Below are positions 5,872 to 42,651 of a DNA stretch of 64,000 nt, piece by piece; the stretch's first letter is position 1; each line of letters begins with the position of its first letter. Source of the DNA: Lingula anatina (lineage: Eukaryota; Animalia; Brachiopoda); NCBI GenBank assembly GCA_051362555.1, contig CM120648.1:18844587-18908586 (forward strand). The letters are read 5' to 3'. The position numbers and the translations under genes were made by a program. Under the pieces are notes generated by a model that saw only the letters and a program-made list of their open reading frames with translations, searched no databases and was not told the DNA's origin.

Positions 5872-6814
5872 ATGGAAGCCATATTAGGGCAATGGAGAAA
5901 GTTTAGACGAGGTGTAAATCCAAGATCAGGACAGGTGACAGTACAGACACAACCTCCATTAGCTGAACAGGAAACAAATACAACATCAGCTCCACATCCT
6001 AATGTTTTCTTTGACAAGACAGAATGTGTGCGTTCCTTCAGTCCTAAACTGGAAGATGATAGAAGAGGAATACACATAACTGGGTTAGCCATATATAAGG
6101 AACACATGTTTGTTGTGGATAATTGGAACAACAGAACAAAAGTATTCACACATGGAGGACAATTTAAGTTTGACATTAAAGTAAACAAACCATGGGATGT
6201 GGCTGTGTCACAGACTGGTCACCTGTATATAACATCAGAGGGTGACAGATGTGTCCAAGTGTACTCCACCAGAGGTCAGCAGGTGACAACCATGGGTCAG
6301 GGTCTACTGGAGTATCCACATGGTATTACACTGAACAGACAAGGTCATGTGATGGTTTGTGACAGTATAAAGAAGTCCATCTTCACATTCCATGCAGACA
6401 GTGGACAGCTCCTGAACACTATTCCAATCAGTATGTGTAGAAACCCAGAGTACATCACAGTGAACAGTGTGAATGATAACATTGTGATATCAGACATGGA
6501 CGGATACTGTGTACATGTGCTGTCACCTACTGGTGATCATCTGTACCAGTATGACGGCAGCAGAGAAGGCAGTGCACTGAGTTATCCACATGGAGTGTGC
6601 ACAGACAGCTATGGTCACATCTTCATTGCTGACTGGGATAACCACAGGATAGTGGCACTGAGTCCACAGGGACAGTTTATCAGATACATTGTCACTAAGG
6701 ATGATGGGTTGAAGTATCCCATGGCAGTAGTCATCAACCCTGCTACTGGTCAGCTGGTGGTGGGAGAGTATTACGGCAATGTTCAGACATTCCAGTACAT
6801 TGACCTGAAACAAG
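5872..6814 (+). CDS. Exon 1: NHL-repeat beta-propeller (TRIM-NHL-like), no RING/B-box
   Basis: 316-aa ORF with repeated NHL motifs (PWDVAVSQTGHLYI, YPHGITLNRQGHVMVCD, YPHGVCTDSYGHIFIADWDNHRI, YPMAVVINP). ATG context ggaATGG. Ends in donor CAAG|GTGAGT, phase 1. Confidence 0.9.
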
Positions 6815-7634
6815 GTGAGTAACATGTATTAACTGTGTGTAGATATGATTATTATGTAAAATATTTGAAAGTTAATTAGTCTTACAATGTTTTTATCCAT
6901 GAATATGTTTGCCTTTATTTCAATAAAAAAACTTTTTAAGCATATATTTAAATTCAGTGAGCACACAGCTGTGCTTTAGTAAAAATGTATGTAGAGTGGA
7001 GACATTTTCTATAGTTAATACTTTACTGTTACTGACCAATTTCTATGAACCCATTATAGTGATTAGGATTTTGAATAATGATGAAGAACTCTTTTTAATA
7101 GAATTTATAGTATGTTTTATTTGTATTTTTATGAAGTCACAAGAAAAACATTTTACATTGTTTAATCCCTGAACTTCTTGTACATTTGTCAGTAAAGAAC
7201 AACTCAAATCTCACAACAGAACAGTCCAATTCTTCGTATTCTTCATCTTGTAGCTGTTCATGAAAGCTTAGATATACCTAAATTCTCAAATGTACTTTTT
7301 CAAGTTTCTCGATGTCTTACCACTTCTAGATTCAAAGACATTTCATCACGAGTTTGTTGTTAACACACACAAATAAATTAAATGTTGAAGTACTTTGGAT
7401 GATACCTTATTTTCCTGACTTTGTGGATTGTTCTTTGCAAATAAAACTAGCAGACGACCATTTTTCATGAAATGGAACTACTTTTCACAGGAAGTAGTGT
7501 ATTCATACACAACAGTGACCTTGGGTTTGGAATACAAAAAAATAGTACATGCATTCATACTGTCACAGCATGCAAATTATAATGAAATATACAAAACTAA
7601 ACACATTTTTATGTAACACAAAAAGTTAAATGCA

Positions 7635-7724
<90 letters not shown>

Positions 7725-13700: not shown

Positions 13701-16700
13701 TTTCAGAGTTATAAAGTCATTTGCCTTAATAGGCCATTAAATGAGATTACATAAAGCACACTTGTTGATATTTCCCTGTAAACGCCCAAAGGTAAAGCTC
13801 TCTGCTAGATTAATAATAAGGAAGCAGTGATAATTATGCAGGTAAATTTTGTTTAATATTGCAAATAAGTTTTAAATAATATATATATATATATATCAAA
13901 CTGGAAGATTAAAAGTTTGAATAGCATCTTCATTGGAATTATATTTACCTCAAGCTCTGCCAAGGAGGTCATATTTTCACCCCCGTTTGTCTGTCATCCA
14001 CATAACACAAAAAGTTATGGACTGATTTTGCAGAAATTTTCAGGAACTGTCGGAAGTGGGCCAAAGAGGACAATGATTAATTTTTGGTGGTGGTCTGGAA
14101 CAATAATCAATCAATTATCAATAATAATCAACAATTTCTGCCTTGACAGAGGTCTGCACTCTCAAAGTGCTTTTCTAGCTACGTTATGTTTTCCTTTATA
14201 ATTTTTTCTCAAACACTTGCATTTGTGACTTTTAACTCTCATCTGCCTGGGGCTCTGCACATTTTCTGTATTTCCACATAAGCAGTTGTATTGTTTTTTA
14301 TGTCTTTAAACATTATGTAATATTATTTTATGCACTGTCATCATTTTTCAAATATTGAGAGTTTCATAATGTGAATTTGAACTCTCATGGTCCTGAAACT
14401 GTAATTTTATTGAAGGGGTGGACCATCTTCTGGGTCTTCCTGAAGACAGTCAGGTTATTAAGTTTATATTGACTGGTATCTATTTTTTTCTGTTGGAAGA
14501 CCATCAAAATGGAGGATGGATCAACATAGATACTTTGTAATACTGTCAGAAAATATCTCTGGGTCCGCTCCTGTTATTGACCATGTTACCTGTTGTGCAA
14601 GATTAAAATTCAGTGTTGACTGACAGTGCTATTATAAGCATTATTTATTATTGCATCAAAATTGACAAAATGACCTTTTTTGCATCTTTATTTTCTGTTT
14701 TTTATCTGTACATTTGACAGCTTTGCTGCCTTGTTTTTTTTTTTTAACTAGTAAGCAAAATCTCTTACACTGCTACAGCACATCATCTACTTGCTACAAT
14801 TTTTACATCTGATGGTTTTTAAATTAAAGCTTACTGTCCCTGTGATTCATCAGCTGAGATTTTTTTTTTTTTTTTTGAATAAGTCATATTGTGTAATATT
14901 ATTCTGTGTTGTTGTTAAAGGGATAACAATTGTTTGTATGATATCCATATTTACTAATAAATATATTGTAAACAACTCATAAAAATATAACAAATTATGT
15001 TTTACCACTAAAATGGCAGTCAACACATTTATTCGTACCACCAGCCTGTAAGCTGTTGGTACTCCTAATTTTATTCCCGACCCGTCTCATACAGCTCCAC
15101 TAGCTCCGCATTCTGGAGCTGGATACAAGTCACCATTCTCCTCCTAGACCCCAAGGACCCATGTCCCCATCTCTTGGATTTAGGTCACATATTATCTCAA
15201 TTTGAACCCTTTTTTTTTTGGCTCAGTTGGTGCATTATCCTGGGCATGACGTTCGTTGAAACGCACCCTTGTCAAAATTTTTGAAAATTCGATGCCAAAT
15301 ATCTCTCAAACCAAAGGAATTATCGGAAAAATTACTATAGAATTTTGACCGAAAGTCATATTTGTAGATTCCAGATATGCCCTTGGATTTGACAGTTGAC
15401 CTTTATCTCAAGGTCAAACAGGCCAAAATCTCCAAAAAATGGGGATTTAAAAAAAATATGTTTGTGCCAATTTTTAGAAACTACACCGACCTAAGTGGGG
15501 GGATTACAATTTGGGACTTCTTCGGGAGTTTGGGGTCAATAGGTGCATTTTCACAGGAGAGGCAGCCGTTAGATGCCAAAGCTGAAAACTCTCTATTAAA
15601 CCAGAACCCTAAATACAAGAGACCTCTTGTTTTTTGCATTTCGTAGAGCTTGTCAAGCTCAATTGATACGTACTGGGGTTGGAATCCATTTTTTTGTTTG
15701 TTTTTGATATGTAGGTTAGGAGTTGTGCTATATAAAAAAGTACATTTCAATATTCAGTAGTGAAGCAAAATGTGAAATACTCAAAAACTGGCAGAGATAC
15801 ACCCATGGTTACTATTGACCTTGAATAAGAAGTCACATACTGGCAGCCAAACTGTGACCTTGAAATTGACCTTTGACCTACTTTTTCATCTTAAACTAAG
15901 TCTTGCAAATTTTTTGCCTCTTTTATCTGCAAAAATGGCAGAGATACACTTTGTGTGCAAATCGACTTTGTGATTTATGAAAAATGTCTGTATACTTCAC
16001 TTTGTTCTTCAGCAGTGATTCAGTATCCAGATTACACACCCTTTTTATCTATCTGTCTATTTTACTCGAAGTTTGTTTTACCCTGATATAAATAACGCAC
16101 CATAGTATTTTTGGGAATTTCTCAATTCAATTCAAAAATTTAATTAAGCTGCGATTTATCGACTTTTGTCATCGTGAAAATGTGAGATTTTACATAACAC
16201 ACTGTTACTCTCAAGCACATATGCAGGCATCCACCTCTCTAGATTTTCTCTCGCTTCCTCTCTGCTATCACTTCACAATAAATATAACGTCTGCAAACAT
16301 CATCGTTCACCTTATCCATGAGTCCTTTTGTCAATCTGAAGCATAACATATGTATTACCAGGTGAGTTTAATGAACGGCTTCGCCGATTGTGTGAAAGTG
16401 GTAAGATTCCAGTATACCGACAGCGAGTAGCTATTGTTGGACCTTACGGTGTGGGGAAGACTTATCTCGCCAAGCGCCTCATCCATGAGGAATATATCAA
16501 AGAAGAAGATGCAAATACAACTGGCGTGAATATATACCGCCATAGGTGTGTTGTCCATAAAGCTGGCCGATCCTGTTGGATCAGAGGAAAAGGTAAGCAG
16601 AATATAGGAAAACGTTTGACACATATGGAATATGTTTATAAAGAATACAAAGAACAGAAGATAAGACATTTTCAATTTTACCACATAATTCACAATAAGG

Positions 16701-18920
16701 AATTATACATACATGTACGTGTGGGTGTCCAAATGTGTCCTTCCCTATCTTAGTATGGTAGACGAGGGGCTGAGTGAAATAGTACCTAAATAAGTGGTGC
16801 CTTTGTATTGTTATCAATCAATTGACATACATGACACTTTACAATCTACTCCTACAGCCCATTGATTATTTTTTAACTGGGTACAAACACTATAATTTCA
16901 TTCTTTGTAAAAACACCATGCTTTTTTCTACTCAATATTGAATTGAATTTTTCAACGGTGTAGCCTGATACGTACACTCAGAAAGGGTACATTTAGATAC
17001 AACGCTTGATCTACCTGTATGATCCTTCCAACTATTCTCAGATGATCCAAAAGACCAGTTTGCACAAAACATGGCAATTGGAGTACAGAATTCAGATACG
17101 TTTTGTGAGCCGGACTTAACAGTATTGGACCAAACGCCACTAGAGGAATCCCCACCAGATTCAGAAGAGAATATTAATAACATGCTGACAAATAGAGGTA
17201 TTGTACATGATTGTCTCGAATAGTTCATCTTGGTGCAATTTAAACAGATATTTGTAGTTATTCTTCTTTTTTGCCAAGAGATTCCACCTTCTATGTGTTT
17301 TTCTTTGGCCATTCCACATATATGTGCCTTGAAAACATTTTTGTTTACTTCAAGGTTGATTCTTTTTCTGTTAGAATGTTGTTTGATATTATTCTTCTCT
17401 TTATTCTACAGCCGCTTCCCCTGATGACAGTGAATCACCTGCCTCTCCTGACAAAGCAGCAGGTAAGTAGTTCACATGTAGTAAAACAAAATTCTCGTGT
17501 ATTGCTCAGAATGTTCGAGAGTTTTTCTTAGCTTGTTGATAAGGTATGTGAGTTTCTATCTTCTTATTTTCATCATACTGGGACTTTGAACTCACATGGG
17601 CATGAAGCCTGGTGGTAATCAAATTTTCTTAATGTCCATGTTTTTAATAGAAGATAATTAAAATTTTGTGGTATTTATACAGTTGACCATTATGTTATAT
17701 TGCATCAAAAATCTACTTTGTGCACTATCACCATAACGTTATAAAAAGAAAACTGTTACCTATTTTATATTTACAAAAAATGATTCTTAGGATTGACAAA
17801 CAGCTTAAATTAGAAAAATCAGCTCTTTTGAATTATCCTTTTTATCGAATTATGCATTTTTTGTGAAATTTTTATTTATCTCATTCTGGTGTGAGCTTGA
17901 ACTCTCATGGGCCTGAAGCCTTATGCTTTTACTTACATCGTTATATACTGTTGTGCATAATTAAATTTTGGGGTTGACTGTGCAGTTAAGCATTGTATTA
18001 CATTAGAACTGACAGCCTCCTATTTTGTGCATTATTATTTTCTGCTTTTTTAAAATTGTGACTTAGATATTTCATGGGCCTGAATACCGTTGCTAGTCAC
18101 ATTTGGGTGACAAGCCTCTAATCTTCCATTGGGTAACTACTAGCTAAATTCAGAGCTATAAGGTCACTTGCCTAAATTAAGTTTCAAGTGGCAATAAAAT
18201 GAGATCATATAAAACACACATGTTGAGATTCCCTGTAAACTCCCATAGGTTAAGTTTTCTGCCAGATAACAGTGTCCATAATAGGGAAGCAGTGATAATT
18301 ATGCAGATAAATGTTGTTTAATTTTGCAAATTAGTTTTCAAAAAATTATTTTGTATAATGCCAACATTAATGCTAGTTTTAAAAGCAGCTTTACTGAAAT
18401 GTTTTGTTTTTAATTTTTTTCAAACACTGAGGGTTTCAACTCAATTTTTAACTCCCCTCCACCTGAAGCTCTGCACATTTTCTGTTTTCCCACAAAGGCA
18501 GTTGTATTGGTATTTATGTATTTCAGCATTATGTAACATTATATTATTCTATGCACTGCTTTCATATGTCAAATATTGTGATTTTTATTACTAGTATGTG
18601 AATTTGAACTTTCGTGGTCCTGAAACTGTAATCTTATCATAGGGGCAGATTGGGATCGTCCTCAAGGTTTTCAGGAAGACGGTCAGATTTTAAAGTTAAC
18701 ATTGACGGGTATCTATTTTTTTGTTGGAAGACCATCTAAAATGGAGGGTGGATTAACAAAGATATTTTAAAATACTGTCAGAAAATACATTTGGATCCGC
18801 TCCTGTTATTGACCATGTTACCTGTTGTGCATGACTTAAATTCAGTGTCGATTGACTGTGCTATTACAAGTATTATTTATTATTGCATCAAAATGAGAAA
18901 ATAACCTATTTTTTGCATCT

Positions 18921-18959
<39 letters not shown>

Positions 18960-21900: not shown

Positions 21901-24900
21901 CATATTGGTGGTGAAAGCAAAATGTGGAGTACGGTAATGGATAATAAATTTTGAACTCCGGAAAAATAAAACATAAGGCTTGGCAAAGCAGACAACTTGT
22001 GGTCAAAAATGACATTATTTCATCAAATTTGAACATCTGGAACTTCAGAGCACCTCTTATTTCAAGAATTTTGACCAAAATGACCTTTTCTTTATTTTAA
22101 TTAATTTTTTCTGTAGGAAATTTATGGCACATTATGGTAACTCCAAAATTAAAACATATAGTCCCTTATATCTCCAAAACTGGCAGAGATAGGTCCATAG
22201 TTACTATTGAAGTTGAATAGGAAGTCATATACTGGCAATCTAAATGTGACCTTGAAATTGACCTTTGACCTACTTTTCACCATGAACAGAACTTTGCATA
22301 TTTTTTTTTCCCTTTTATCTCCAAAACTGGCAGAGATAGGTCCATAGTTACTATTGAACTTGAATAGGAAGTCAGAGATAGGTCCATAGTTTCTATTGAA
22401 CTTGCATGGGAAGTCATATACTGGCAATCTAAGTGTGACCTTGAAATTGACCTTTGACCTACTTTTTATCATGAATTGAATTTTGCAAATTTTGGTTCCC
22501 TTTTATCTCCAAAACTGGCAGAGATAGGTCCATAGTTTCTATTGAACTTGCATGGAAAGTCATATACTGGCAATCTAAATGTGACCTTGAAATTGACCTT
22601 TGACCTACTTTTCACTATGAACTGAACTCTGCAAATTTCTTTCTCTTTTAACTCCAAACCTGGCAGAGATAGGTCCATAGTTACCATTAAAGTTGAATAT
22701 GAAGTCATATACTGGCAATTTACTGTGACCTTGAAATTGACCTTTGACCTACCTTACGATGAACTTAACTTTGATTGTACCATTTTAAGTTATATTTATT
22801 TTTTTGCATATTTTGAAAATTCTTGTTGATTGCATTTTTACAGCTTGTCAAGCATAAGACTGGTGGCTGTGTCCCTTCCTTTGTGTATGTGGGGGTCTAT
22901 ACGAATGCACTTGCTCCAGCTGGTGGTACAATATTCGGAGGCGGTATCGCCTCTCTGATCCTCTAGTTTCTACAGTGCCCATTCAAAATTGAAAAAGAGC
23001 TATTTTCCGTCAATTTTTCTTGAAGGGCAGGTCTACATATGACAGATTTGCTGTCTTGTTTTATCTGGGTACAAACACGACAATTTAATTTTCTGTAAAA
23101 TAAGTCTTCTTTATATGACTGAGGATTATTTTTCTTTTTGCCAAGGGATTCCACCTTCTATGTGTTTTTTGTTGGCCATTATACCTTATGTGCCTTGAAG
23201 ACTGGGCACTTGATACCAATTATACTTGATCTTATTAGATGCATTTTCGATGTAATTTATTTATTTTTATACAATATTTATAGACCAATATCCCAAAGTT
23301 ATATGTTAAAATTTTGTAAAGAAATTCCTTTATCTTAGCCACATTTTTGTTTACTTTAAGATTGAGTCATTTTCTGCTAGAATGGTGTTTGATATTCTTC
23401 TTCTCTTTATTCTACAGCCGCTCCACCTGCCTCTCCTGACAGAGCAGCAGGTAAGTAGTGCACATGTAGTAAAACAAGATTCCGTCTTTTGCTCATAATC
23501 TGCAAGAGTTGTTCTTAGCTTGTCGATTAAGTATGTGAGTTCCTGCATTCTTATTTTCATCAAACTGTATTAGTAATGTTATATTAAAATTGACTATACC
23601 TTACAATTTTAATTGATTTTAATGAATGTTAAAACATTCAGTATTTATCACCCAGTTATGTTTTGAGCTTACTCACTTGTATTCAACAGAGAGGATACAT
23701 TTTTAAGAAAAAAATGTTTTTTTTTTGGAAATTGCCGATAAACCTTCAGAAACAGATGAAAGCTTCTAATTTATTTGATAACTGTTTCACAAAGTTAATT
23801 GACACTAAATACATTCAAATTTTGTCAATGATTACAATACTTCTTTATGCTAAAAAGTTTTATTTTAACCGCACTGTTTATTGTACAGTCCTTTTCAAAG
23901 GTGAAAGTGGATCTCATACCTCTGGGGAAGAAAACATGGGTAGTATAAGAATGTTGACGATATGTCGATGTATGAACAGTCCCTGACAAATGAAATAAAT
24001 TAGATTGAAAGCATGTCTATAAAGATTAAGGTCTAGTCTCTCACAACCCCCCCCCCCCCCCCCCCCCCCCTTAAAGAAGGCACATCAGCTGAAAACTCAA
24101 TTGGGCGCTTGATACCAATTATACTTATTACATGCATTTTCAATCTAATTTATTTATTTTTATACAATATTTATACAATATACTGCGGGATTAATACGAT
24201 GATTTGGATAAATATGCACGCATTGCAATACATAACAATATGCATTATGCTAAAATCATTTAGTTTGGACATAGCTTATTGTATTCATCGCAGTGGCAGA
24301 AAGGAACCATCTAGATGATATTGACAAGGAGCTATTGGAAAAAATTGAGAAAATTGCCCGAGGGGAAGATGTGGAGCCAGAGAAACAGGTCACAATTTGG
24401 GATTTTGCAGGACAGGATGTCTACTACACCACGCACCAAACATTCCTCTCAGAGCGGATCATCTACTTGTTGGTATTCCGACTTGACCAGGACCTCGATG
24501 ATAAAATCCGTGTATACAGGGGAGAGAAGACGCTGAAAGGTATTGTTGAGCTTTATATCTTTACATGTATAAGCTACTCAGGGCCCTGATGTAAATAATG
24601 GCCTATCAACTGTGTGTAATTTCTTTATTAAAAGATCCACATTTTTAAATCTCTCTATTGCTCTTAATATATATATATATATATAACATTGAGATTTTAG
24701 TAGCGTTAATTTTAAATGGTTCCGATGAGTGTTTTGGATTGTAATATTCTAGTGATTTTAAGGATTTTAGTTATATTTACCATTGTAAGCCGCCCAATAA
24801 GAAACATTATTATTATTATTATTATTATTATATTATTGGCGCTATTTTTTAGCAATGCTGAGGAGAAAACACCGATTAATATTCATCTTTGCATTAACAT

Positions 24901-27900
24901 CAAGGCTTTGTATGTATTTTTCAGAGTTTATTATGTTTTGGTTAAACTCAATCCATATGCACACTATTGGAAAATTGAGGGAAGAAGACAAAAATGCCAT
25001 GCCATACGTCTTGATTATTGGAACTCATAAGGACATGTTATGCCCACAGGTGAAAACGCTTTTCTTTTCACAATTATTCAATTACTACCATACTTATTGT
25101 ACCACCAGCGTAGGCGCTGGCGGTACACATGGTTTTAGTCCCGACCCGTATGTTCCGCCGGTTCCGTCGGCTCCTGCGGCTCCGCCGCCAAGTCACCGTT
25201 ACCGCTTCTCCTCCTAGACGGTAAGGGCCTCCATACCCATCTCTTCGATTTAGGTCACCTATAATCTCAACATGTCCACGTAAAATTTGGGCTTTGTCGG
25301 TATTGGGGTCTAGGTGTGGCACTTATTGCAATGCACCCTTGTCCAAAAATGGCAAAATTAAATGCATATTATCTCCCCTACGGAAGGAATTATGGGAAAA
25401 ATTTCTACAGACAGCTTTCCAAAAGTCATATGTGTAGATTTCAAATATGCCCTTGAATTTGACCTTTAGAGTTTCGAGTTACGCTGTATCCAAAAGTACA
25501 TATTGGTGGTGAAAGCAAAATGTGCAGTACGGTAATGGATAATAAATTTTGAACTCCGGAAAAATAAAACATAAGGCTTGGCAAAGCAGACAACTTGTGG
25601 TCAAAAATGATATTCTTTCATCAAATTTGAACATCTGGAACTTCAGAGCACCTCCCATTCCAAGAATTTTGACCAAAATGATGTTTTCTTTATTTAAATT
25701 AATCTTTTCTGTAGGAAATTTATGGCACATTATGGTAACTCAAAAATTATAACATTTAGTCCCTTATATCTCCAAAACTGGCAGAGATAGGTCCATAGTT
25801 TCTATTGAAGTTGAATAGGAAGTCATATACTGGCAATCTACATGTGACCTTAAAATTGACCTTTGACCTACTTTTCACCATGAACTAAACTTTGCAAATT
25901 TTGATTCCCTTTTATCTCCAAAACTGGCAGAGATAGGTCCATAGTTACTATTGAACTTGAATAGGAAGTCATATACTGGCAATCTAAATGTGACCTTAAA
26001 ATTGACCTTTAACCTACTTTTCACCATGAACTGAACTTTGCAAATTTTGCTTCCCTTTTATCTCCAAAACTGGCAGAGATAGGTCCCTAGTTTCTATTGA
26101 ACTTGAATAGGAAGTCATATACTGGCAATCTACATGTGACCTTAAAATTGACCTTTGACCTACTTTTCATCATGAACTGAACTTTGCAAATTTTGCTTCC
26201 CTTTTATCTCCAAAACTGGCAGAGATAGGTCCATAGTCTCTATTGAAGTTGAATAGGAAGGCATATACTGGCAATCTAAGAGTGACCTTAAAATTGACCT
26301 TTGACATACTTTTCACCATGAACTGAATTTTGCATATTTTGCTTCCACTTTATCTCCAAAACTGGCAGAGATAGGTCCATAGTTACTATTGAACGTGAAA
26401 GGAAGTCATATACTGGCAATCTAAGTGTGACCTTTAAATTGACCTTTGACCTACTTATTATCAAGAACTGAACTCTGCTAATTTCTTTCTCTTTTAACTC
26501 CAAATCTGGCAGAGATAGGCGAATAGTTACTATTGAAGTTGAATAGGAAGTCATATACTGGCAATTTACTGTGACCTTGGAATTGACCTTTGACCTACCT
26601 TACGATGAACTTAACTTTGATTGTACCATTTTTAGTTATATATATATTTTTTGCATATTTTGAAAATTCTTGTTGATTGCATTTTTACAGCTTGTTAAGC
26701 ACAAGACTGGTGGCTGTGTTCCTTATTTTGTGTATGTGGGGGTCTATAAGAATGCGCTTGCTCCAGCTGGTGGTACAATATTCAGAGGCGATATCGCCTC
26801 TCTGATCCTCTAGTTCTATGTATAATTTGTATCCCTTCAACCATATCACGATTCCTGACGAGTGACTTAATTATTTAGAAACTTTTCACTATGTGACTAT
26901 TTGTGGATGGCATGATTTAATGTTGGGGGAAAAGGGTGTCCCTTGCCCACTGACTCCATCCTAAGTTTATAGGTTCATTGCAGCACACCCATTTTTCAAC
27001 TTGAACGAAGTGGACTATATCATATACACATATATACATGTACATACACACACCCTGGTAGATGTTTTCTTTCGCTCTGACACTTAAGCATTATTATATA
27101 GTAGTGCAAAACTACAAAAGAATCTTAACATCTTTTCATTCATAGGGCGAGGTTGAAAAGATTTTTGATAAACTCAAGAAGTGTCTCGATGACAAGCAGG
27201 TACTCAAGGACCACGTCTATCGATATTTTGCCATAAGCAACTTGGCCGAAGACGATGAGGAGTTTGCTGAAATAAAAAGAGCGATCGAAGATTTGTGCGG
27301 TTATAGCAGCGACAGTGAGGCTACCGTTCAACATCTTCCAGTGAGTTGGATTAAATTGGAAATGAATTTGGCAAAGAAGAGTGAAGAAACACCCATCATA
27401 AGTATTGAAAAATTGATGGAAATGGCGCAAAGGGTAGGACTCCCTGATGGAGAATTACAAGAAAAATTCATTCCTTACCATCACCGTCAAGGCGACATCC
27501 TACACTTTAAAATTGATGGACTGGAAAGTGTCGTCATAATAGATCCACTTTGGTTAGCAGTTGTGTTTTCTGCCATCATGACCCCGGCCAGCATTCACTC
27601 TGGATGCAGTCGCGGCCATGTCCTGAAAGATGAGCTTGAAAGAGGAGTCCTAAAAGAGGAGGTATTTGATGAGTATCTAAAAGAATTCAAGATGGCAGAA
27701 AAAAAGACTGAAATCATTCGACTTATGCTGCATTTCGACTTGATGTTAGAAATATCCCAATCAGTTGAAAACCCTCTGCCTGGACATGGAAAAAGAAGAT
27801 TCCTCGTACCCAGTATGCTGGTATCAAATAACAGTGCGAATGAGACAAATCCGCAGAAATATTTGCTTATCGCATTCCCTCATATTCTGTTTCCTACTGG

Positions 27901-30900
27901 GTTATTTCATCGTCTGACCATCCGTCTTCTAAGGAAGTATAAAGCTCAGCAATATAAAAATAACATCCCAGTTGTCGGGTTTGACAGCGCCTCCTTCCGC
28001 CTGGCTGATAAACAGTCGGTGCTGCATCTCGCCATTGAAAATAAGGCCATGAAGTTGTTTATAACTAACGCCACTGGACTCCCTCCAAGGACTCGCGTGT
28101 ATTCAGAAGCAAGAAAAACAGTTGAAAACGAGTTGACAGTCCTTCGGGATACATACTGCCCCAGGATGTATTTTGGCTACAGCATCAGGTTAACAAATGA
28201 CGGACCCAATATTCCAATAAATGCACATGACGTCCAAACAGCCGATTCCATATGTGCGTATGTAGAGAACTCTGAAGTGTCGGTAGATTTAAGGCCATAT
28301 CGCGTTTGGTTTTCTGGTAAGCAGTTTGAAATATCACGTAGTGTTGTTGTGAATAGACATTAGGCCCTATGCTATTTTAACATAGAACATGCATTCCGTG
28401 TTAATTGGTTCACAGATCTTAACATTTTAAAAGATCCCTGATTACACAGCATGTAATATCTGAAACCAGATACCATTTGAAAATTTAGGTTTGATTAGTT
28501 TTAATTTTCAAAATAATTTATCGGGAAAAATATATTAAGGATATTTCTGTTTTGTACATATATTTTTGAAAATATTGATTTTTTACACAAACACTAATGA
28601 CATACAATGTTAGTTATTTCTTATGAATACTCAATTGTATATGCAATAGACTAAAAAATGCTCAATTAGAAATTAATGGGAAAATTTATATTAATCTACC
28701 CTTCTTAAATGAACTATGTACTTGTTTGTAACATTTTTATTAGAAACAAAAGGCAAGATATCGTATTCAGATTTTACTCAAACATGTTATGAATTAGCAA
28801 CCTGTGATATCAAGTCATTAGAAACATGTCAGTGAGAGATAAAACCAAAATTAACAATCATTTCGGAATGACACTTGGATTTTGAAAGGAAAAGTATGGC
28901 GTATGATAGGACATAAAGTATTTTGATGGGGCCCTAGAGGCCAAGTGCCAATATATAATATACATAAGACCAATCTTACCATTTTAGCAGCCCCAGAGAA
29001 TCAAGACCGTCGTGCAGCCAAGTGTCCTGAAAACGAGGCAAGTTATGAGCTTTTAAATACGTTTGTGTCTTAGTACTGCGCAGCAAACACAGAACGTTAT
29101 TATAATGTTACCATATCATATGTCCAAAAACATTTTGGTAACATTATAGTAAAGTTCTGTGTTTGCTGACCATTATCCTCACTTGCACAAGTTTTAGTAA
29201 GACCATGAAATTAAATGTACTCGTATATACACAATCGTAAGAAAAATTGGATACACTTAGGCATAAATGCGCACTTTTCACTCTGTTACACTTGCTATAC
29301 GACCTCTGATATTTCTAATGATAAATTTCACATAAAGACAGTGTATGTGTGCGTTTCAGTACAAGAACGATTCCGAACCAAGAGGTCGTGCACTCATTAT
29401 CAACAACAAGACATTTTCCGTGGACTGGCTTCGAGAACGTGATGGTACCGAGGTAGATGTTGTTGCCTTGAGGAAACTATTCCGTTACCTCCATTATGAG
29501 ACAGACGTTATCAGTAACCTGACTGCAAATGTGAGTTCATTAATAAGATCATGGTGTGTTTGTAATAAAACGAACATCGTAAAAGCCAAATGGCTTTTAG
29601 GTTTCAAAGACTAACATACTTTTTGGTGATATCTAAATATATTTATCAGTGACACAAAGATGATACAATTGATACTTGAACCTTTTGGTTCAAAACAGGT
29701 GTTGTCAAACAAACTTTTCGGTCACATTTTATTATGTTTATCTATTTCACTGCAGTATATTTTTCTACTAAAATGAAGCTTTTCACTCGTTTCTGTTCAT
29801 TGCATGTATTTGTATTTATATGAGAGACGTATGGTACACTGTATAGGTATACAACATTGGTCAAAAAGGTTGTCCCACCCCTATTTCCATGTACTAATAT
29901 TTACAAATGATCACCTTACAGCTGTAAATTGTTAGAAATAGTGCTTTTTATTACGGATACCGTGTCTAACGTGATTAATGGTTTTAAAAATACAAAATAG
30001 TGGTGAAAATATACATATTTTATACCATTTAGTAAAATTTATAAGAGGTACCCCCTCAAATTGACTGTTTCACTGTGACTTCTACAGATGTAAAGAAATG
30101 TCTATAAAATTGAAAAGACGCCATCAAATGTCACCAAATTCACAGACAATTAGCATTAGGGTATGCTCGTTAAAGGTCACTTGCCTAACAGCGTGTGCGT
30201 CTACCGCGTACTGCAATTATCTCCTGTAGATGGCGCAACAAGCCTTCAACACAGGTTACAATTCTGCTTTGTGGGATATTGTCCGATTCTTCTTAAACAA
30301 GATGGGGGATTTGGCCCAGGTTTTTATGGGGTTGGTTCTCCTTTGCATTGCACACTCCAATTCATGTCACAGTTGATTAGTAAGTTTAATATCAGGGCTC
30401 AAAGATGGTGGTTCCATCCTTAGACCATTGTGTTTCTTCAACAAAAGCCAGGCGAGGGGTGTGAGCAAGTGTGTAGTCATGATAAAGCCTGAAGTTAACC
30501 CTAAAGTCAGTTCTTGAAGATGGAATGAGATATCAGCTGAGAATGCTACGTTCAGTGATCCCACAGGCACCTGAACCTGGTCATCCATCACTGGAAGGAA
30601 GTCGATTTTGATGCAGAATTAAATTATTGTACCACCAGCGTTAGCGCTGGAAGTACACATGGTTTCGGTCCCGTCCGGATCGTTCCGCCGGCTCCGCCGT
30701 CTCCGCCGGATGGCTACCGTTACCGCTTCTCCTCCTAGACGGTAAGGGCCCCCGTACCCATCTCATGGATTTAGGTCACCTATAATCTCAACTCGTTCCA
30801 CGTAAAATTTGGGCTTTGTCGGTATTGGGGTCTGGGTGTGGCACTCATTGCAATGCACCCTTGTCTAAAAATGGCAAAATTAAATGCTAATTATCTACCC

Positions 30901-36900: not shown

Positions 36901-39900
36901 AATTAGAAAAGCGTCAGTAACGTATGTTACAAAAACGGGGGTTTAAGCAGGTACATCATGAAAATGACTTAACTAAACCCGACTTTTGCAATATGGCCAA
37001 TAAGGTCAGTAATCTCACTAAGTCATAATATAGTGAAATGCCCCATATCTTGTGTCTTTTAAACGTGGGAAGGTGACACCCCCATTTGCACTGTTTTATT
37101 GATTTTGAGTGTAAATGGTATAAAATGTGTATATTTTCACCACTATTTTGTTTTTTTTTTTTAACCATGAATCATCTTAGACACGGTATCCGTAATAAAA
37201 AGCACTATTTCTAACAGTTCACAGCTGTGAGGTGATCATTTGTAAATAAAAGTACATGGAAATGGGGGTGGGACAACCTTTTGACCAATGTTGTATACAA
37301 ACAGACATGGCGTACAATCTACAAATATACCACCATATGTCCGTCCTCGGTGGCTACTGCCTTTCACATTCTCTGTTAGCGTCAAGTATGAATTGATGCT
37401 GCCATTTTGCTTTACGCTGTCGTTGATAACCCAATTCCGTACGTACCACGTCTCTGCAGTCATTGCATGCTATTTCTTTTGAAGTACACTATGTTTTTAT
37501 GTCACTTCTTCTTTTATTTTAATGTGTAAAGGAAATGAAGGAAGAAATAGAACAAGAAAGTCAAAGAGACGATCACAAGATCTACGATTCTTTCATCTTG
37601 TTTCTACTGAGCCATGGTACCGAGGGTGCTGTTTATGGAACGGATGGCTATCCTTTACCCTTCAAATATATCAAAGCCATTTTGAATAACAGGAACTGTC
37701 TTGGCCTGTCGGGCAAACCGAAAATGATATTTATTCAGGCTTGCCAGGGAAGTAAGTTATGGAATGTATTACACAAGCTTGAATACCTGCGATGAAAATA
37801 ACATGCAAAACTATTAAACAAATGTATTGAGATATTAAACTGTATTAACAGTTTGTCTCCTTTAAATTATATTCAGCCACACGAAATGAATGACGCTTAG
37901 TATTATGTAATTGTTTAATTAGTTAATACTGATATCAATTCTAACTTATATGTAAACATGTAATTCACATAAGGGTGTATGGGGTATTTCATTTTTTTTC
38001 CATATTCGCCCAGAGATATTGGACAGTGGGACACTCCTGGACGGACAAACAGTTCAACAACCACAGCAAGCACCACCTGCAGCAAACCTTGGTGATGAGG
38101 TACCCGATGCGCCACACGAGATTCCAAAGCCATCCAATGATCCGACGATGTCCGATTTTCTCGAAGTCCATGCAACTTCACCAGGTACTTTAACCGTGTT
38201 TCTTTGTATGCCATTTTACTTAGGCCTTACAAATGTGTTTTTCATCAGAAAAAAAAATCAAAATGATAAGGTGCACGTGGTGATGCTGGGATTATGGCAT
38301 TGTGCCTCAGGTAGAAGATGGTGTGCATTTTGTGGTCTTTCGACATATTGTGGAGAACTGTATTGTACGTGTATACTTTAAAATGCGCACTACATTACTG
38401 CACCAGTAAATACTGAAAATGGTGCATGTATTTTTATACAGTATCAAATAAAATATATGTGCCAAATTTAATTAAAATGTACGTACATTTTTGCCATAAT
38501 GCTTTTAAAAATGCGTTCACGATCACTACGAAAAATGAAAGTGTGTCGAGACGTTACCTTATTGTATTTGGGAAGCTGTCAGACGATTTCTTTCGATAAA
38601 AAAGACTTGGTAGCTTATGCAAATGTTGAGAAAAAAAACATGCCGATTATGGAAAATTCATATATCAAAATTTAAACTATGTATTTCGACAGATTTTAAT
38701 TTAATTTAATTTAAAAATCGCGATAGTGTATTTCTGACATTGAATTCTCAGTGTGCACAAAGTGTAGGCATCGAAGGCATTCATGAATGTCGACACGTTT
38801 GATTCTTTGAATCAGACGCTTCATGTACTTGATAGCGCAGAGGCATGCCAGGGAAAACAGAGGAAGAAAAGCAAGTTCTGGTTTTTCTTGATTGAAGGCT
38901 TTGATTTGTTGAAGGGCAATTCCGTATAGCCTGGTTTCCAAAGATCGTGTCGCAGGCATATCAGCAAAACAAAATGCATCGCCAAGGACCCGAATGCCAT
39001 GGCAAAATGTTTTAAGTTTACTTTGTTATTTTGATACAAATAAGCTTCTGGTTGACATAGATTTGACTGGTCCTCAACTTTCCATGCTGCACTGTGCCTG
39101 ACCGAAAAAAAACCCCTTAAAATGAGTAGTGATTCAGTGTTCCAATCATGCCTGTGACGGCTAGAAATGTGACCCATATTATTTGCCTTTTGGAGATCAT
39201 TTCAGGTCGGTTCACTGTAACACTATCGGCAAATAAACTTTACTAATAGTTCCTCGATCTATGAGATTTATGAAATTTGCTTTTCCGCACTCTCAGTGAC
39301 ACTAAGTACTGTTATATTAACAAAATAAAAATAAACAGTACTGTTGCATCTACGAGTAAATAATTCGTTAAGGCTTCAGTATTTTCTGTTTCAGAATACG
39401 TATCTTGGCGACACACGGGAAAGGGAACATGGTTTGTTCAATCCATTGTCGATACATTTTATCGTGAAGCACACAAATATGACGTTTTACAAATGTTGGT
39501 GAATGTAAGTACTGAAATAACCTGAACTACATTATTTTGCATTGAAAGTGTGTTAAATTCATTAGAACACCAATCAAATATAAAACATAGCTGCCAGAAG
39601 AAGTGACATGTCGTAAGAGGTGACTTATGTAAATACAGTCCAACATGCACAGACTTTTTAAGAACCAGCGAAATGCTTTTCTGTATATTTTGACAGTTTA
39701 ATCAGAACTGTTCACTTCATGTTATATTTTATTTCACCAGGTCAATCACGCGATCTCTCAAAAGCAAACAACAATGGGCAATAAACAGGCACCAGAGATA
39801 GTTACCAGCTTACGAAAGAAAGTTTTCTTCAACATAACTCCAGGTAAGCAAAAAGAGTCACATCTTCCCGAGGTGTATTCGGCCGAATAATAAAGACCTG

Positions 39901-42604
39901 AGATCAAAAGTAAGCAAAAACAACGAACCTGGAACGTGTTAAGGTACAAACAATGCTGCCAGTCCTGCTGAAGATCTCATCCTTTTATCAAATGTCTCAA
40001 ATCTCCCACCCAGTTGCAGACCCCACCTACAAAATTGTTCTCAACTTCAATAAATCATTCCCAACTAAAGCTGGAACTTCAAGGTTATGATCTTCATAAG
40101 GTTATTTTTCTCATCAATGTTATTTCTATGTGTTTCCACCTAAATTGCACCACAACTCCCAGCATTCACGCACCTCACAGTCATTTATCAGTACTTACTC
40201 CTCCTGAAGCCATTTTGGACTACATTGAATCAGGTTATCCTTTGGGTAGATTGCTGGCACAATTTAGTCTCCTTCTTACAGATTTCAAATATTCAATGTT
40301 ACATGTTGTCCCTAAATCTGATCTTCACAAAACTCATGTAATTTACGATCTTTTTTTTTTTAATCCCAACCTGGTCTCGGTTGATTCTAACATTCCAAGA
40401 GAGTTCTCTGTGGCACAGTACGACTTCATTGATGCTGTTATCGCACATGTCCAACATTTTGTTCGTGGTGCTCTTTTAGGTATATCTTATATTCAAGATG
40501 TTTTCCACATTTTACCGATTATCAACTGCGTCCATCCCTTAAAGGCCCAGTGGGTCACCTGTGACCCACACATTTGACACGTCCCCACCCACACCACACA
40601 AAATGAATCCACTTCATTTTGCCATTTCCTTTTCCTTATGTACTAGTTTATCCTTGTTGACCAATTAGAAACTAGATCATTATCCTTCACTTCACTCAAA
40701 TATGTCTGCCTCCATAAGAAGGAGTTAATGCTATTGCCTAGTGGGTTTTTATGTGTCTGTATTGTCATCTCAAGGTAAATAATAATTTCAATATTCTGCC
40801 TTTTCATTATAAATACAATAGTCTTAAACCACACAGAGATGTTTTATACAGTTGTTAGCTACGCTTCCAGGTTTAAATTTATTTTTTATGTTGTTATTGT
40901 AATAAAAAGAGGTTTGTGATATCTTGAAACTTAGTCATTTGTTTACCTCTAAAGCCCAGTGGGTCACCGGTGGAACATAACCAAAAACTAGGTCAATGTT
41001 GCCCAAAACATTTTTTTCAACATTTATTGATAAATATGCTTATTACAATCCTATTACCTAGGTATTAAACTTTTCATGCAAGAAAAACATGTCTTGGGCC
41101 TTTAAGGGTTTTTCCTGGAATGATCTGTTTTATTATGAGAAATGTTTGCCAATAGGTGCAAGTTGTTCGTGCCAGATTTTTTAATCTATGAATAAAGCTA
41201 TGCAATGGATTATGTTGGAGAGATTTCATTATTCGGCCATGTCCCGTATACTAGATGATATCTGTTTCATTGGACCTCAAAATTCCAAGAAGTGTCAGGT
41301 TGATTTTTTTTGTGTTATGCACATGGATAAACGTTTCCATTAACGCAGTAAAAACCTTTACTCTGACCACTTGTTTAACGTAAACAACCTTTACTCTGAC
41401 CACTTTTGTTTATTTTATCTCATCGAAATAGATTCAATACAAATGAAACCTTGGATAGGCTTTTAGGGTTTAATCTGAAATAAAATTTCAGGCATTGGTC
41501 AAACGTGTCTAATTTGGTTCAGTTTTGTTGTGGGATATGGTTGATTGGGCGAGTAATGACCCACCCACTTATTGTCCATGTGGTTCAAGTATGGTGATTT
41601 TAATGACCAAGGTAACTACTTACTCCCTTGTTTCATTAAGTTATCTGCTATTCCAGGTTCTCTGTTCGAACCAGTAATCTCATTGTGCAACCTTAATTTA
41701 CTCCTAATGTGCCCCCTAGTCATGCGATTCCCAGATTATAACTTACTTTGATGTGTTTAGGATCTTATTATTTTTTTACTATTAAAAATGATAATTTTCA
41801 GTCATATGCACTTTACCTCATTTGCCTTTGAGCAAAAACAGAGCTGTGTTGTGCTAATGATCATTTGGCTACATAAAACAGCAATTTAGATAATTGTGTT
41901 TATGTAGGGAATGTCTACATCAGTGAGATTTAAGTCATCCAGCTTTTTAGCTGCTTGATATTTACCCGCATTGTTACGTAGTGCAGTTTAAGCAGCTACA
42001 CTGGAAGATTACTTGCTTCGTTATTTCATTTTTATTTGGACACATTCCACGTTCCCCCATCACCCGCCTTAGTCCTTGTGTTTTTCTCTATTTTTTTCTT
42101 TTTTTTTTACTAACCAGAGTCTCTATTTCTGCGCCAATAACTATTGTGGTTTCATATATATTTTATTCTGAATTTATCTTGGTTGCACCCATTAAACTAT
42201 ATTATTATTATTTATATTATAACATTTATATAGCATGGGGTGTATGATAATCCCCCATTTTTGTAAGTTTATATCTCATTATTCTTCGTCATTAATAAAT
42301 GACAGTTTTCAGTCATATGGACTTTATGCTATGTACCTTTGAGCAAAAAGCTTAGCTTTGTTGTGTTGGTGTGATTATTTGGCTACATGAATAGAATATT
42401 TCATCCACAGAGGTGTCTCTTGGCTGTAAGATATATGAAATAATATTCAAATAAATCTGAACTGAAAAAAATTAATTAATTCTATAAAACGCAATATTTT
42501 GAAGAAACATGTTGTTGTAAAGAACAATTTTCTTGCTGCTGTCATATCACCTGGTAATTGTTTGTGTTCTAGGTGAAGAAGAGTCAGTCCAAGACCAAAA
42601 CTAA
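5872..42604 (+). CDS. Multi-exon gene model: NHL-repeat / Roc GTPase / COR / caspase (peptidase C14) fusion protein, ~1270 aa
   Basis: Exons 5872-6814, 16362-16592, 17042-17197, 17412-17462, 23418-23450, 24294-24539, 24925-25049, 27146-28316, 28991-29037, 29360-29530, 37532-37751, 38014-38184, 39395-39504, 39741-39843, 42573-42604 (or read-through of the 39741 exon to TAA at 39888-39890). All have AG acceptors and GT donors (one GC), phases are compatible and there are no internal stops. Exon sum is 3810 nt. Confidence 0.8.
10439..11250. repeat. ~160-bp tandem repeat, ~5 copies
   Basis: TAAACACGATAAGTGAAAA...GTTCGAAAATCAGCATGAT...GCAACACCG recurs at ~10439, 10600, 10761, 10921, 11082. Confidence 0.9.
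11784..13020. repeat. ~337-bp tandem repeat, ~3.5 copies, alternating variants
   Basis: GGCATTT..A...GACTT anchors at 11784, 12121, 12459, 12796. Confidence 0.8.
13943..14178 (+). mobile_element. Short HINE/DINE-like element
   Basis: 5' CTCTGCCAAGG / 3' CCTTGACAGAGG subterminal inverted repeat, GTTTGTCTGT tract, 3' hairpin GCACT..AGTGC and CTAG end. Absent from the paralogous region at 17570-18930. Confidence 0.6.
15030..15950 (+). mobile_element. Diverged partial copy of the HINE family at 19513-22966
   Basis: GTACCACCAGC head, CTCTTGGATTTAGGTCAC, and a TGACCTTGAAATTGACCTTTGACC unit. Confidence 0.7.
16362..16592 (+). CDS. Exon 2: Roc GTPase P-loop (G1) and switch I
   Basis: RVAIVGPYGVGKT..L...EY..EDANTTGVNI. 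Acceptor ccag at 16358-61, donor AG|GTAAGC. Phase 1-1. Confidence 0.88.
17042..17197 (+). CDS. Exon 3: acidic insert within Roc
   Basis: ttctcag|AT GAT CCA... gives DDPKDQFAQNMAIGVQNSDTFCEPDLTVLDQTPLEESPPDSEENINNMLTNR, donor G|GTATTG. 156 nt, phase 1-1. Confidence 0.7.
17412..17462 (+). CDS. Exon 4: 51-nt microexon (AASPDDSESPASPDKAA)
   Basis: Polypyrimidine tract and ctacag acceptor, strong donor CAG|GTAAGT, phase 1-1. Confidence 0.7.
19513..22966 (+). mobile_element. Helentron/HINE-type element with 146-bp central satellite (copy A)
   Basis: Subterminal IR TTGTACCACCAGC...GCTGGTGGTACAA, 5' hairpin CCAGCGTTAGCGCTGG, (CCGCCGGCT)n tract, 3' hairpin GAGGCGGTATCGCCTC, CTAG end before TT. 146-bp units from 20524. 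Confidence 0.85.
23418..23450 (+). CDS. Exon 5: 33-nt microexon (AAPPASPDRAA), duplicate of exon 4
   Basis: Same acceptor and donor context as 17412-17462 with an in-frame 18-nt deletion. Phase 1-1. Confidence 0.6.
24294..24539 (+). CDS. Exon 6: Roc G3/switch II
   Basis: [32 protein letters not shown], the Roc signature of LRRK/MFHAS1/Dictyostelium Roco type. cag acceptor, G|GTATTG donor. Confidence 0.93.
24925..25049 (+). CDS. Exon 7: Roc G4
   Basis: EFIMFWLNSIH...PYVLIIGTHKD. tttttcag acceptor, CAG|GTGAAA donor, phase 1-0. Confidence 0.9.
25095..26813 (+). mobile_element. Same HINE family (copy B)
   Basis: Same termini as copy A, with fewer 146-bp units and an internal deletion. Confidence 0.85.
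27146..28316 (+). CDS. Exon 8: Roc G5 plus COR domain
   Basis: YFAISN, then LPVSWIKLE, YHHRQGDILHF, VIIDPLWL, LMLHFDLML, FLVPSML, FPTGLFHRLTIRLL (COR motifs). catag acceptor, G|GTAAGC donor. Confidence 0.9.
28991..29037 (+). CDS. Exon 9: COR-caspase linker ending in a GC donor
   Basis: tagcag|CC CCA GAG AAT... gives APENQDRRAAKCPENE, then GAG|GCAAGT. Converts phase 1 to phase 0, exactly as needed to join COR to the caspase exon. Confidence 0.7.
29081..29168. mobile_element. ~90-bp palindromic MITE remnant
   Basis: CAGCAAACACAGAAC ... GTTCTGTGTTTGCTG inverted repeat. Confidence 0.55.
29360..29530 (+). CDS. Exon 10: caspase large subunit N-terminal part
   Basis: YKNDSEPRGRALIINNKTF...RDGTEVDVVALRKLFRYLHYE...NLTA. 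tttcag acceptor, AAT|GTGAGT donor. Confidence 0.92.
30625..32851 (+). mobile_element. Same HINE family (copy C), nested in the foldback
   Basis: Same termini and 146-bp array as copies A and B. Confidence 0.85.
33554..37111 (-). mobile_element. DNA transposon with CACTC termini and 3-bp TAA target duplication (CMC-like termini), internally deleted
   Basis: TIR CACTCAAAGTCAATAAAACAGTGCAA / TTGCACTGTTTTATTGATTTTGAGTG with TAA on both sides. The empty site can be reconstructed from the foldback's other arm. Confidence 0.8.
34704..35621 (-). CDS. Truncated N-terminal part of a DNA-transposon protein (K/R-rich)
   Basis: 305-aa ORF with basic coiled coils and a V..FY..DDNS...PGKK motif that I associate with invertebrate transposase N-termini. 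No catalytic region follows. Lies within the 33554-37111 TIRs. Confidence 0.55.
   Translation of the reverse strand: MPLSRAEIQKNYRERKKRNERETYLAKERARQKRNYVPIGTLTERKRSKRRDEVKERVRKCRQKKNVENAAIDVPNPVESTNDTSGYETMQSDHSTGLIVRLPNRRNGPRKRLSKALRKSRDKLKSLKKENEGLKKKVKCVQRKMQRIKRKMNIPACPNTPRSNTKRLFLKSKGFGGKRVRKQLLLTNVITAEASKFKHVTTSNAKKMQLYGSFAGKLLKKYRCISHFSKSAKINRNLISNIIRKGIDTAEIRKRTAYKFRRQVTAFYVCDDNSTMQPGKKEKTKRMFKFSKRDVKLVESKFRHN
37532..37751 (+). CDS. Exon 11: caspase catalytic His/Cys
   Basis: FLLSHGTEGAVYGTDG...NCLGLSGKPKMIFIQACQG. Donor A|GTAAGT. Confidence 0.95.
38014..38184 (+). CDS. Exon 12: caspase inter-subunit linker and start of small subunit
   Basis: KILDSG...GDEVPDA...PTMSDFLEVHATSP. Phase 1-1. 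Confidence 0.88.
39395..39504 (+). CDS. Exon 13: caspase small subunit
   Basis: EYVSWRHTGKGTWFVQSIVDTFYREAHKYDVLQMLVN. tttcag acceptor, AAT|GTAAGT donor. Not in the ORF track. Confidence 0.92.
39741..39843 (+). CDS. Exon 14: caspase small-subunit C-terminus
   Basis: VNHAISQKQTTMGNKQAPEIVTSLRKKVFF (KQ.P...S.LRK..FF motif). Donor CAG|GTAAGC, or read-through to a stop at 39890. Confidence 0.9.
39950..41800 (+). mobile_element. Degenerate DIRS/Ngaro-type retrotransposon (RT relic)
   Basis: GRL..QF, VVPKSD, SVDSNIPRE...QY..ID, GALL...IQDVFHILPI, then after an insertion GFSW...YEKCLPIGAS.SCQIF, ILDDICFIG, IEIDS. Stops and frameshifts. Confidence 0.7.
40536..41108. mobile_element. MITE inserted into the DIRS-like RT (piggyBac-like CCC..GGG or Kolobok-like TTAA-AGG termini)
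   Basis: CCCTTAAAGGCCCA ... TGGGCCTTTAAGGG with an internal palindrome GTGGGTCACCTGTGACCCAC. It splits the RT reading. Confidence 0.7.
42573..42604 (+). CDS. Possible terminal exon (GEEESVQDQN*)
   Basis: tttgtgttctag acceptor, phase 1 matching the 39843 donor. Short, with no homology support. Confidence 0.35.
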
Positions 42605-42651
42605 AGACGGCTGTCAACGGTTTCATGCACAGAGATCCCGCAAACGAAGTA

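Follow-up and report, generated by a model that had tools for sequence, protein, structure and literature searches.

According to the passages available from Kaur et al. (2021), the C-terminal effectors of bacterial LRR-AP-GTPase-COR proteins number at least 24, a caspase among them (PMC8195603). In Runella zeae, a Roc-COR-CHAT protease cleaves a bacterial gasdermin (bioRxiv 10.1101/2021.06.07.447441). A Roc domain joined to a caspase is also on record for an animal, the annelid Owenia fusiformis, whose ROC-prodomain caspase CAH1787638.1 is assigned to the caspase-Y clade (PMC11463336); the passages available from that paper present it as a species-specific oddity, possibly a chimeric model. 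The supplement of the same paper contains XP_013381226.2, which corresponds to the C-half of the gene described below, and Owenia CAH1786849.1, with the prodomain cell empty for both. Kinase-less Roco proteins have expanded in Trichoplax (PMC4104024), in Aplysia, as TIR-ROCO proteins (PMC9334734), and in brown algae (PMC11378527). For the Roco switch itself, the working model pairs GTP with the monomer and GDP with the dimer; LRRK2 in cells is mostly monomeric, and its KM near cellular GTP suggests GTP sensing (PMC6337361). A title in the reference list of PMC11463336 points to intramolecular signalling by the DAPK1 Roc.

The window analysed here is a stretch of 64,000 nucleotides from the brachiopod Lingula anatina (GCA_051362555.1, contig CM120648.1, positions 18,844,587 to 18,908,586 of the forward strand), which carries a gene joining an NHL propeller, Roc, COR and a caspase. 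With a probability of roughly 0.58, we take its product to be a self-contained, NLR-like immune receptor built on a Roco switch, whose caspase would be activated by induced proximity. Once the variable propeller had bound an invader molecule, Roc-COR would join two chains into a pair, which would turn on their caspase domains. By analogy with homologues, namely the cycle of the Chlorobium tepidum Roco (CtRoco), the resting state would be a GTP-bound monomer, and hydrolysis or ligand-driven clustering would yield a COR-mediated dimer. The linker of about 27 residues would then bring two caspase-Y-type domains together, as the apoptosome or DISC would. Putative substrates of the activated enzyme are effector caspases or brachiopod GSDME, a gasdermin reported for this phylum (PMC11508797, PMC8742441).

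The exon chain at 5872-42604 comprises 15 exons, 3813 nt when spliced, and encodes 1270 residues with its sole stop at the end (Table 1), in keeping with the 14 or 15 stop-free exons of consistent phase claimed in the preliminary description. All 14 acceptors are AG and 13 of the 14 donors are GT; the remaining donor (29037) is GC and is the only good one found in its interval. Searched as single exons, the chain yields Pfam matches to NHL (E 8e-21), to Roc in two halves (4e-6 and 3e-8), to COR-A (2e-21) and to Peptidase_C14 (2e-9, 9e-20 and 8e-8), in this order, which bears out the earlier claim of an NHL-Roc-COR protein with a full caspase. The G motifs and the His/Cys dyad are kept, and the reading of a single polypeptide with intact Roc and caspase motifs is supported. 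The surrounding sequence is intron-rich animal DNA of 36% GC, and the NHL, COR and caspase exons all have their best relatives among L. anatina RefSeq proteins, with identities of up to 96-99% over conserved parts. Exon 2 shares 76 of its 77 residues with the relative P0012, which also contains two units of the kind seen in exons 4 and 5 (an 80% DNA match, flanks included). The read-through tail of exon 14 has a counterpart in XP_013405061.1. An open reading frame at 18905-19162 was rejected as an exon; it has no Pfam match and no match to the paralogues.

Table 1. Exons of the NHL-Roc-COR-caspase gene, in window coordinates
Feature	Positions	Strand	Content
Exon 1, aa 1-314	5872..6814	+	Short leader and six-bladed NHL propeller with hypervariable top face; phase-1 donor; PF01436
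Exon 2, aa 315-391	16362..16592	+	N-terminal half of Roc; G1 P-loop GPYGVGKT at aa 341, switch-I Thr; PF08477
Exon 3	17042..17197	+	Acidic insert within Roc; tblastn 90% to P0007; part of the P0012 match
Exon 4	17412..17462	+	17-codon phase-1 mini-exon of the Roc insert
Exon 5	23418..23450	+	11-codon duplicate of exon 4; optional, frame-neutral
Exon 6	24294..24539	+	Roc G3 WDFAGQ at aa 507; PF08477
Exon 7	24925..25049	+	Roc G4 GTHKD at aa 586
Exon 8, aa 596-985	27146..28316	+	End of Roc (G5) and entire COR; PF16095
Exon 9	28988..29037	+	50-nt COR-caspase linker exon; GC donor
Exon 10	29360..29530	+	Start of caspase p20, S1-pocket Arg; PF00656
Exon 11	37532..37751	+	Catalytic SHG (His 1087) and QACQG (Cys 1130); PF00656, E 9e-20
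Exon 12	38014..38184	+	Inter-subunit linker with several Asp, then start of p10
Exon 13	39395..39504	+	p10 with VSWR; PF00656
Exon 14	39741..39843	+	End of p10; possible read-through to stop at about 39890 (alternative tail)
Exon 15	42573..42604	+	10-residue tail and stop; identical tail in XP_013381226.2

The AG acceptor that lies 14 nt upstream of the ATG (window 5858-5871) would keep the frame as a phase-1 junction and makes a further exon upstream, whether coding or untranslated, probable. A tblastn comparison with the fetched proteins located no such exon within the window; the identical Met opens three RefSeq relatives, and an exon before the start of the window is possible.

Transcription was assessed in four of nine raw RNA runs (X1, X4, X7 and X9) over the window part 23900-43000, with reads counted from 90% likeness, part of which may stem from a 95%-identical paralogue. 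In run X4, 41 reads span the joint 24539/24925, 39 span 25049/27146 (Roc to COR), 35 span 29037/29360 and 30 span 39504/39741, while 28316/28988 has nine reads with one differing letter at 28315. Among the joints listed for this run, at least five of the 14 junctions are therefore seen in RNA, both COR-to-caspase joints included. Depth per exon base in X4 is about 22-54x across Roc, COR and caspase exons alike and near zero over the gene region in X1, X7 and X9; expression thus appears to be sample-specific (one of four runs). The model was most vulnerable at the linker exon, which has to bridge a COR that leaves off in phase 1 and a caspase that begins in phase 0; a COR exon read on without splicing would run into a stop at 28361. 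Splicing of the linker exon from COR to caspase is settled by the nine and 35 reads on its two joints. Both had been proposed for checking: the downstream one was confirmed, and the upstream one is present with its acceptor at 28988, the proposed 28991 being rejected on the reads and on XP_013381226.2.

In RefSeq the gene is split into two fragments, which lie on separate scaffolds of 45,860 and 303,711 bases. XP_023930482.1 (641 aa) is 89% identical to residues 1-595; its NHL-to-Roc joint is the same, and its end is a read-through of the intron that follows exon 7. XP_013381226.2 (603 aa) matches residues 668-1270 without gaps at 581 of 603 positions (96%), linker and last exon included. RefSeq models draw on transcripts, and together these two cover 13 of the 14 junctions; the missing one, 25049/27146, is the one with 39 reads. 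Nine junctions, five upstream of 24294 and four in the caspase, rest on collinearity with the two fragments. The linker exon also occurs in a second, 95%-identical COR-caspase copy, XP_013405061.1. No single molecule links both ends, because the 1171-nt COR exon exceeds a read pair. The gene is real and expressed, and Roc, COR and caspase are spliced as one message.

The propeller has a confident predicted fold (AlphaFold pLDDT 95; TM 0.87 to the TRIM3 NHL, 7qrw) and derives from TRIM2/3-like genes; tblastn with all fetched proteins, Lingula TRIMs included, found no RING, B-box or coiled coil upstream within the window. Exon 1 is 82-85% identical to the N-termini of three L. anatina proteins. 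Compared with XP_023930482.1, its closest RefSeq relative, the NHL is identical at 226 of 267 positions and Roc at 277 of 281 (98.6%). The d-a and b-c loops of a propeller form its top face, and the faces were delimited with these loops as taken from the predicted model. On this basis the two proteins differ at 29 of 54 top-face positions, 2 of 52 on the bottom face and 11 of 159 elsewhere (Fisher p 5e-9, a post hoc value for a pattern noticed by eye before counting). Two further paralogues differ likewise at 24/54 top versus 1/52 bottom and at 23/54 versus 2/52 positions. The 54 top-face positions hold 6 K/R, 6 D/E and 13 aromatic residues, in the model an aromatic-rich face and not a basic RNA patch, on which the putative ligand would sit. 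In LIN41 and Brat, the upper surface of the NHL is the ligand (RNA) site (PMC5908797). Since the ligand face changes while the switch behind it stays, we infer a receptor for pathogens, and the suggestion in the preliminary description that the NHL acts as a sensor gains real support.

At the other end of the protein, the caspase begins about 27 residues after COR, with the dyad motifs SHG at 1086 and QACQG at 1128, a p20-linker-p10 layout and VSWR at 1192. Alignment identifies the Arg before DGT (1029), Gln 1128 and the Arg of VSWR (1195) as S1-pocket residues, roles which we take to be those of their counterparts in caspase-3/8. The model of the paralogue P0002 matches caspase-3/7/8 structures, and its Foldseek search returned solely caspases among the matches listed. 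The domain is best described as an intact-looking metazoan caspase (C14A) with a predicted Asp-specific S1 pocket. An unrooted tree of 38 rows, hand-picked among search matches, places it in a 99/93 clade of 12 rows with the CARD caspase XP_013405490.1, a PARP-caspase and a caspase-RIG-I helicase fusion. XP_013405490.1 is named Casp.Y3 in the supplement of PMC11463336, and by tree placement the window caspase is assigned to the caspase-Y type. Pfam found no CARD on the exons scanned, nor on P0012/P0204; NHL-Roc-COR stands in its place. Members of this caspase lineage have thus been plugged repeatedly onto sensor-like modules. Several relatives depart from the pattern. Lingula XP_023933245.1 and an older model (P0006/P0007) contain an 82%-identical caspase copy with Asp for the catalytic Cys (QADQG), which adjoins a Roc-COR-HEPN paralogue and may be a decoy or a decayed tandem copy. 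In the Roc-COR-caspases P0002 and P0052, SACQS replaces QACxG, which may alter the S1 pocket. In Lingula XP_013415815.1 and XP_013415812.1 (P0124/P0221), a complete caspase of the same clade lies N-terminal to a RIG-I/MDA5-like helicase, replacing the CARDs.

Between these ends lies the candidate switch. Roc is split by an acidic insert of 80 residues into two Pfam matches, and its G1 (GPYGVGKT), G3 (WDFAGQ) and G4 (GTHKD) are intact and match the paralogues; G2 Thr and G5 were presumptively assigned by consensus and alignment with LRRK2. COR follows directly (PF16095), with a profile that matches LRRK2, CtRoco (3dpu) and MbRoco2 (4wnr). Pfam COR-B has no match on the COR exon; the predicted model of the 77%-identical paralogue P0002 aligns to the CtRoco COR 3dpt over both subdomains (residues 262-593, Z 19.8, rmsd 3.2, 287 aligned). 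By every feature examined, the predicted protein is a member of the Roco GTPases, with G1-G5 in Roc and both COR subdomains. The C-terminal half of COR mediates the CtRoco dimer, and initiator-type caspases are activated by dimerisation, so that a role for Roc-COR as a nucleotide-gated dimeriser of the caspase is plausible. A complex prediction for two copies of the COR exon, run without an alignment, scored 0.00 and speaks neither for nor against a dimer.

The Roco cycle is debated and the DAPK1 Roc is described as signalling intramolecularly, so dimerisation need not be the switch. The gene could instead be an immune gene in which Roc-COR serves as an intramolecular brake, a scaffold or a GTP-level sensor, the caspase being freed or clustered by ligand with no GTP-gated COR dimer. 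We regard this as unlikely, and the monomeric state and KM of LRRK2 speak for it (PMC6337361), as does the Runella protease, which is active when simply co-expressed or purified (bioRxiv 10.1101/2021.06.07.447441). The position of the caspase in 11 Roc-COR-caspase fusions, found among the best 150 of 9305 phmmer matches, bears on both sides. In three it lies N-terminal of Roc, far from the C-COR dimer axis, but in eight it directly follows COR on linkers of 25-100 residues, an arrangement that, like the dimerisation-dependence of initiator caspases, argues for induced proximity.

These 11 fusions include the query, XP_013401300.1, and stand beside 37 Roc-COR proteins alone among the same 150 matches; all are gene models. 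The caspase follows COR in three Lingula proteins, Owenia CAH1786849.1, Branchiostoma XP_035660786.1, Exaiptasia KXJ13106.1 (a longer model with an N-terminal HEPN) and two unnamed ENA proteins, and precedes Roc in Potamilus, Antedon and Branchiostoma (partial). Roc-COR-caspases thus appear to occur in four phyla, those of anemone, annelid, brachiopod and amphioxus. A single clade for ten C-terminal caspases is rejected (AU p 2.6e-7 on the 38 rows, with at least six changes forced), pointing to repeated assembly or effector replacement. Quick trees were also made of 115 caspase rows and of 64 Roc-COR rows, the latter with five near-duplicate rows left out and P0218 unlabelled though it has a caspase. 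A profile built from eight Roc-COR-caspases retrieved 21 proteins, two of them with a caspase domain, both from Lingula. The ESM Atlas gave mollusc Roc-COR-Death/HEPN/CARD and cyanobacterial COR-CHAT clusters as leads only (feature matches of at most 0.80), and no Roc-COR-C14 cluster was among the matches listed. Owenia CAH1786849.1 (P0055) unites Bcl-2, Roc, COR and caspase in a single polypeptide (Pfam Bcl-2, E 5e-23). Lingula XP_013407220.1 (P0054), which neighbours it in the Roc-COR tree, has a similar-looking helical N-terminus with no Pfam match. Within the class, Bcl-2-Roc-COR-caspase may be an older form that is shared.

Within Lingula, a Roc-COR clade with support 100 carries as outputs the window caspase and a second caspase 39% identical to it (XP_013401300.1); its other modules are C-terminal HEPN_DZIP3 (two), N-terminal HEPN_DZIP3 and a RHIM-like tail (PF12721, E 0.007, under the cut-off). 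The NHL exon is likewise mobile, being joined in XP_013403180.1 to a Roc-COR of a second clade, with an identity of only 27%, and in XP_013391204.1 to a tail that gives a weak CARD match. In Lingula, near-identical Roc-COR cores are therefore fitted with interchangeable outputs: a caspase, HEPN or a RHIM-like tail. Such turnover also feeds an improbable account, in which the gene is a recent product of exon shuffling in a fast-turnover family, expressed as raw material or decoy with no dedicated coupling of its modules. Many modules are joined at phase-1 introns, the introns are transposon-rich, expression is low or nil in three of the four runs, and near-identical copies have different tails or a dead caspase; P0006, near-identical and with such a caspase, shows that copies can decay. 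However, all catalytic motifs are kept across 15 exons, two more near-identical COR-caspase copies are intact, the same architecture recurs in four phyla, and decay would not give face-specific variation.

The repeats of the window include a Gypsy-type LTR retrotransposon at 47185-52690, with identical 189-bp LTRs (47185-47373 and 52502-52690) and a gag-like ORF (47405-48511) that overlaps a pol ORF (48430-52278). It is inserted in a Harbinger-like transposase gene, of which DDE_Tnp_4 pieces lie at 46479-46823, 52564-52992 and 53438-53662 and a Myb/SANT piece at 61111-61326. A Tc1-like element with 34-bp inverted ends (42647-43916) begins 43 bases past the stop codon; the same family is also represented, about 470 bases upstream of the ATG, by a short copy with an internal deletion (5167-5406). 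A repeat built of 146-bp tandem units is present three times within introns (19507-22773, 25097-26619 and 30619-32668); its RNA depth is very high and strand-biased, and stems from copies across the genome. A 39-bp minisatellite of 89 copies (57152-60626) produces spurious open frames of 1200 codons on both strands, and an exact 258-bp tandem duplication lies at 55399-55916. No tRNA was found in the window.

It is very improbable that the NHL exon belongs to a separate transcript, leaving a Roc-COR-caspase with another N-terminal module or none. The first intron measures 9.5 kb, the RNA comparison covered a region downstream of the joint 6814/16362, and three RefSeq paralogue models lack G1, their starts being within the Roc insert. 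Yet XP_023930482.1 has the identical NHL-Roc joint, XP_013403180.1 joins the same NHL exon to another Roc, exon 2 has no Met before the P-loop, and tblastn of the fetched proteins found no other known module in the window; most likely, then, the propeller precedes Roc-COR-caspase in the same protein. Least probable of all is a developmental or RNA-regulatory role, in which the NHL would bind host RNA as in TRIM71/Brat and the caspase would be non-lethal: the TRIM2/3-like descent of the propeller and the RNA-binding upper surfaces of LIN41 and Brat would suit it, but the residue counts of the top face do not, and that face varies strongly between close copies, unlike one with a fixed host ligand.

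The immune-receptor reading matters beyond the locus. APAF-1 is absent from brachiopods, molluscs and annelids (PMC11463336), and a caspase with a built-in sensor and GTPase switch would be a concrete, testable answer to how initiator caspases are turned on in these lineages. In LRRK2 Parkinson disease, Roc-COR is the mutated module. Since dimerisation is directly reported by caspases, the protein would be a natural reporter for nucleotide control of Roc-COR dimers, and, if the reading is true, a direct enzymatic read-out of their disputed monomer-dimer cycle. More tentatively, at somewhat short of even odds, such proteins may form an unrecognised invertebrate class of one-chain inflammasome or apoptosome substitutes, based on a Roco GTPase instead of a STAND ATPase, repeatedly assembled from cnidarians to amphioxus, exon-swapped, and converging on the bacterial Roc-COR-CHAT/gasdermin design. 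Its proposed layout would be a sensor (the hypervariable NHL here, Bcl-2-like or HEPN modules elsewhere), Roc-COR and a caspase.

In a literature search that lay mostly outside subscription journals, no paper was found on an NHL repeat with Roc and COR, nor on Roc-COR with a caspase domain in invertebrates. The preliminary description had known of no characterised protein of this architecture. As far as the literature was searched, this holds for the NHL version and for any animal member; as a general statement it falls, given the Roc-caspase of Owenia (PMC11463336), the bacterial LRR-Roc-COR-caspases (PMC8195603) and the characterised Runella protease. What this search did not find in print is the hypervariability of the NHL top face beside a 98.6%-identical Roc, the swapping of effectors on near-identical Roc-COR cores in Lingula, and Roc-COR-caspases in anemone, annelid, brachiopod and amphioxus whose caspases are not one clade. 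To the described systems the locus would therefore add a complete four-part gene, a hypervariable NHL face, effector swapping within Lingula and recurrence in four phyla.

Each known relative shares part of this design. With TRIM-NHL proteins, the Lingula protein has the six-bladed propeller in common; with LRRK2, DAPK1 and CtRoco, the Roc-COR fold and G motifs. Those Rocos have a kinase or death-domain output, unlike the caspase of Lingula, and lack its large acidic insert between switch I and II. The Rocos of Trichoplax, Aplysia and brown algae likewise set Roc-COR beside repeat sensors and death-fold, TIR or peptidase modules, with a proposed immune role and exon shuffling, but their outputs are adaptors (Death, CARD, TIR) or a trypsin-like peptidase, and neither a caspase catalytic domain nor an NHL appears in the passages available (PMC4104024, PMC9334734, PMC11378527). 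Owenia CAH1787638.1 also joins Roc to a caspase-Y-type caspase in a lophotrochozoan, and COR, sensor and dimer logic are absent from the available passages of its account (PMC11463336). The Runella protease likewise has a repeat sensor, Roc-COR and a C-terminal caspase-clan His/Cys protease in one chain (PMC13475620 for LRR/NTPase), with gasdermin cleavage and death as the tested output (bioRxiv 10.1101/2021.06.07.447441). However, it is bacterial, with LRRs and a CHAT protease cutting after Leu, whereas Lingula combines an NHL with a metazoan caspase, predicted to be Asp-specific; a gasdermin gene adjoins the Runella protease gene, and none was seen within the Lingula window. The prokaryotic AP-GTPase (Roc)-COR counter-invader systems, as far as the passages available describe them, likewise have fast-evolving N-terminal repeats, an AP-GTPase-COR core, swappable C-terminal effectors including caspase, and several paralogues per genome (PMC8195603). 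They are bacterial with LRR sensors, whereas the Lingula protein is exon-shuffled, with a fast-evolving, TRIM-NHL-derived propeller in place of the LRRs and a caspase-Y-type domain; its variable C-terminal effectors (two caspase lineages, HEPN_DZIP3 and a RHIM-like tail on one Roc-COR clade) correspond to theirs. The Lingula protein would thus work like the bacterial AP-GTPase-COR-effector receptors without being one, and would carry over to animals a bacterial receptor design, fitted with a variable module for ligand binding that is new: likely a one-piece immune alarm of a kind so far tested only there.
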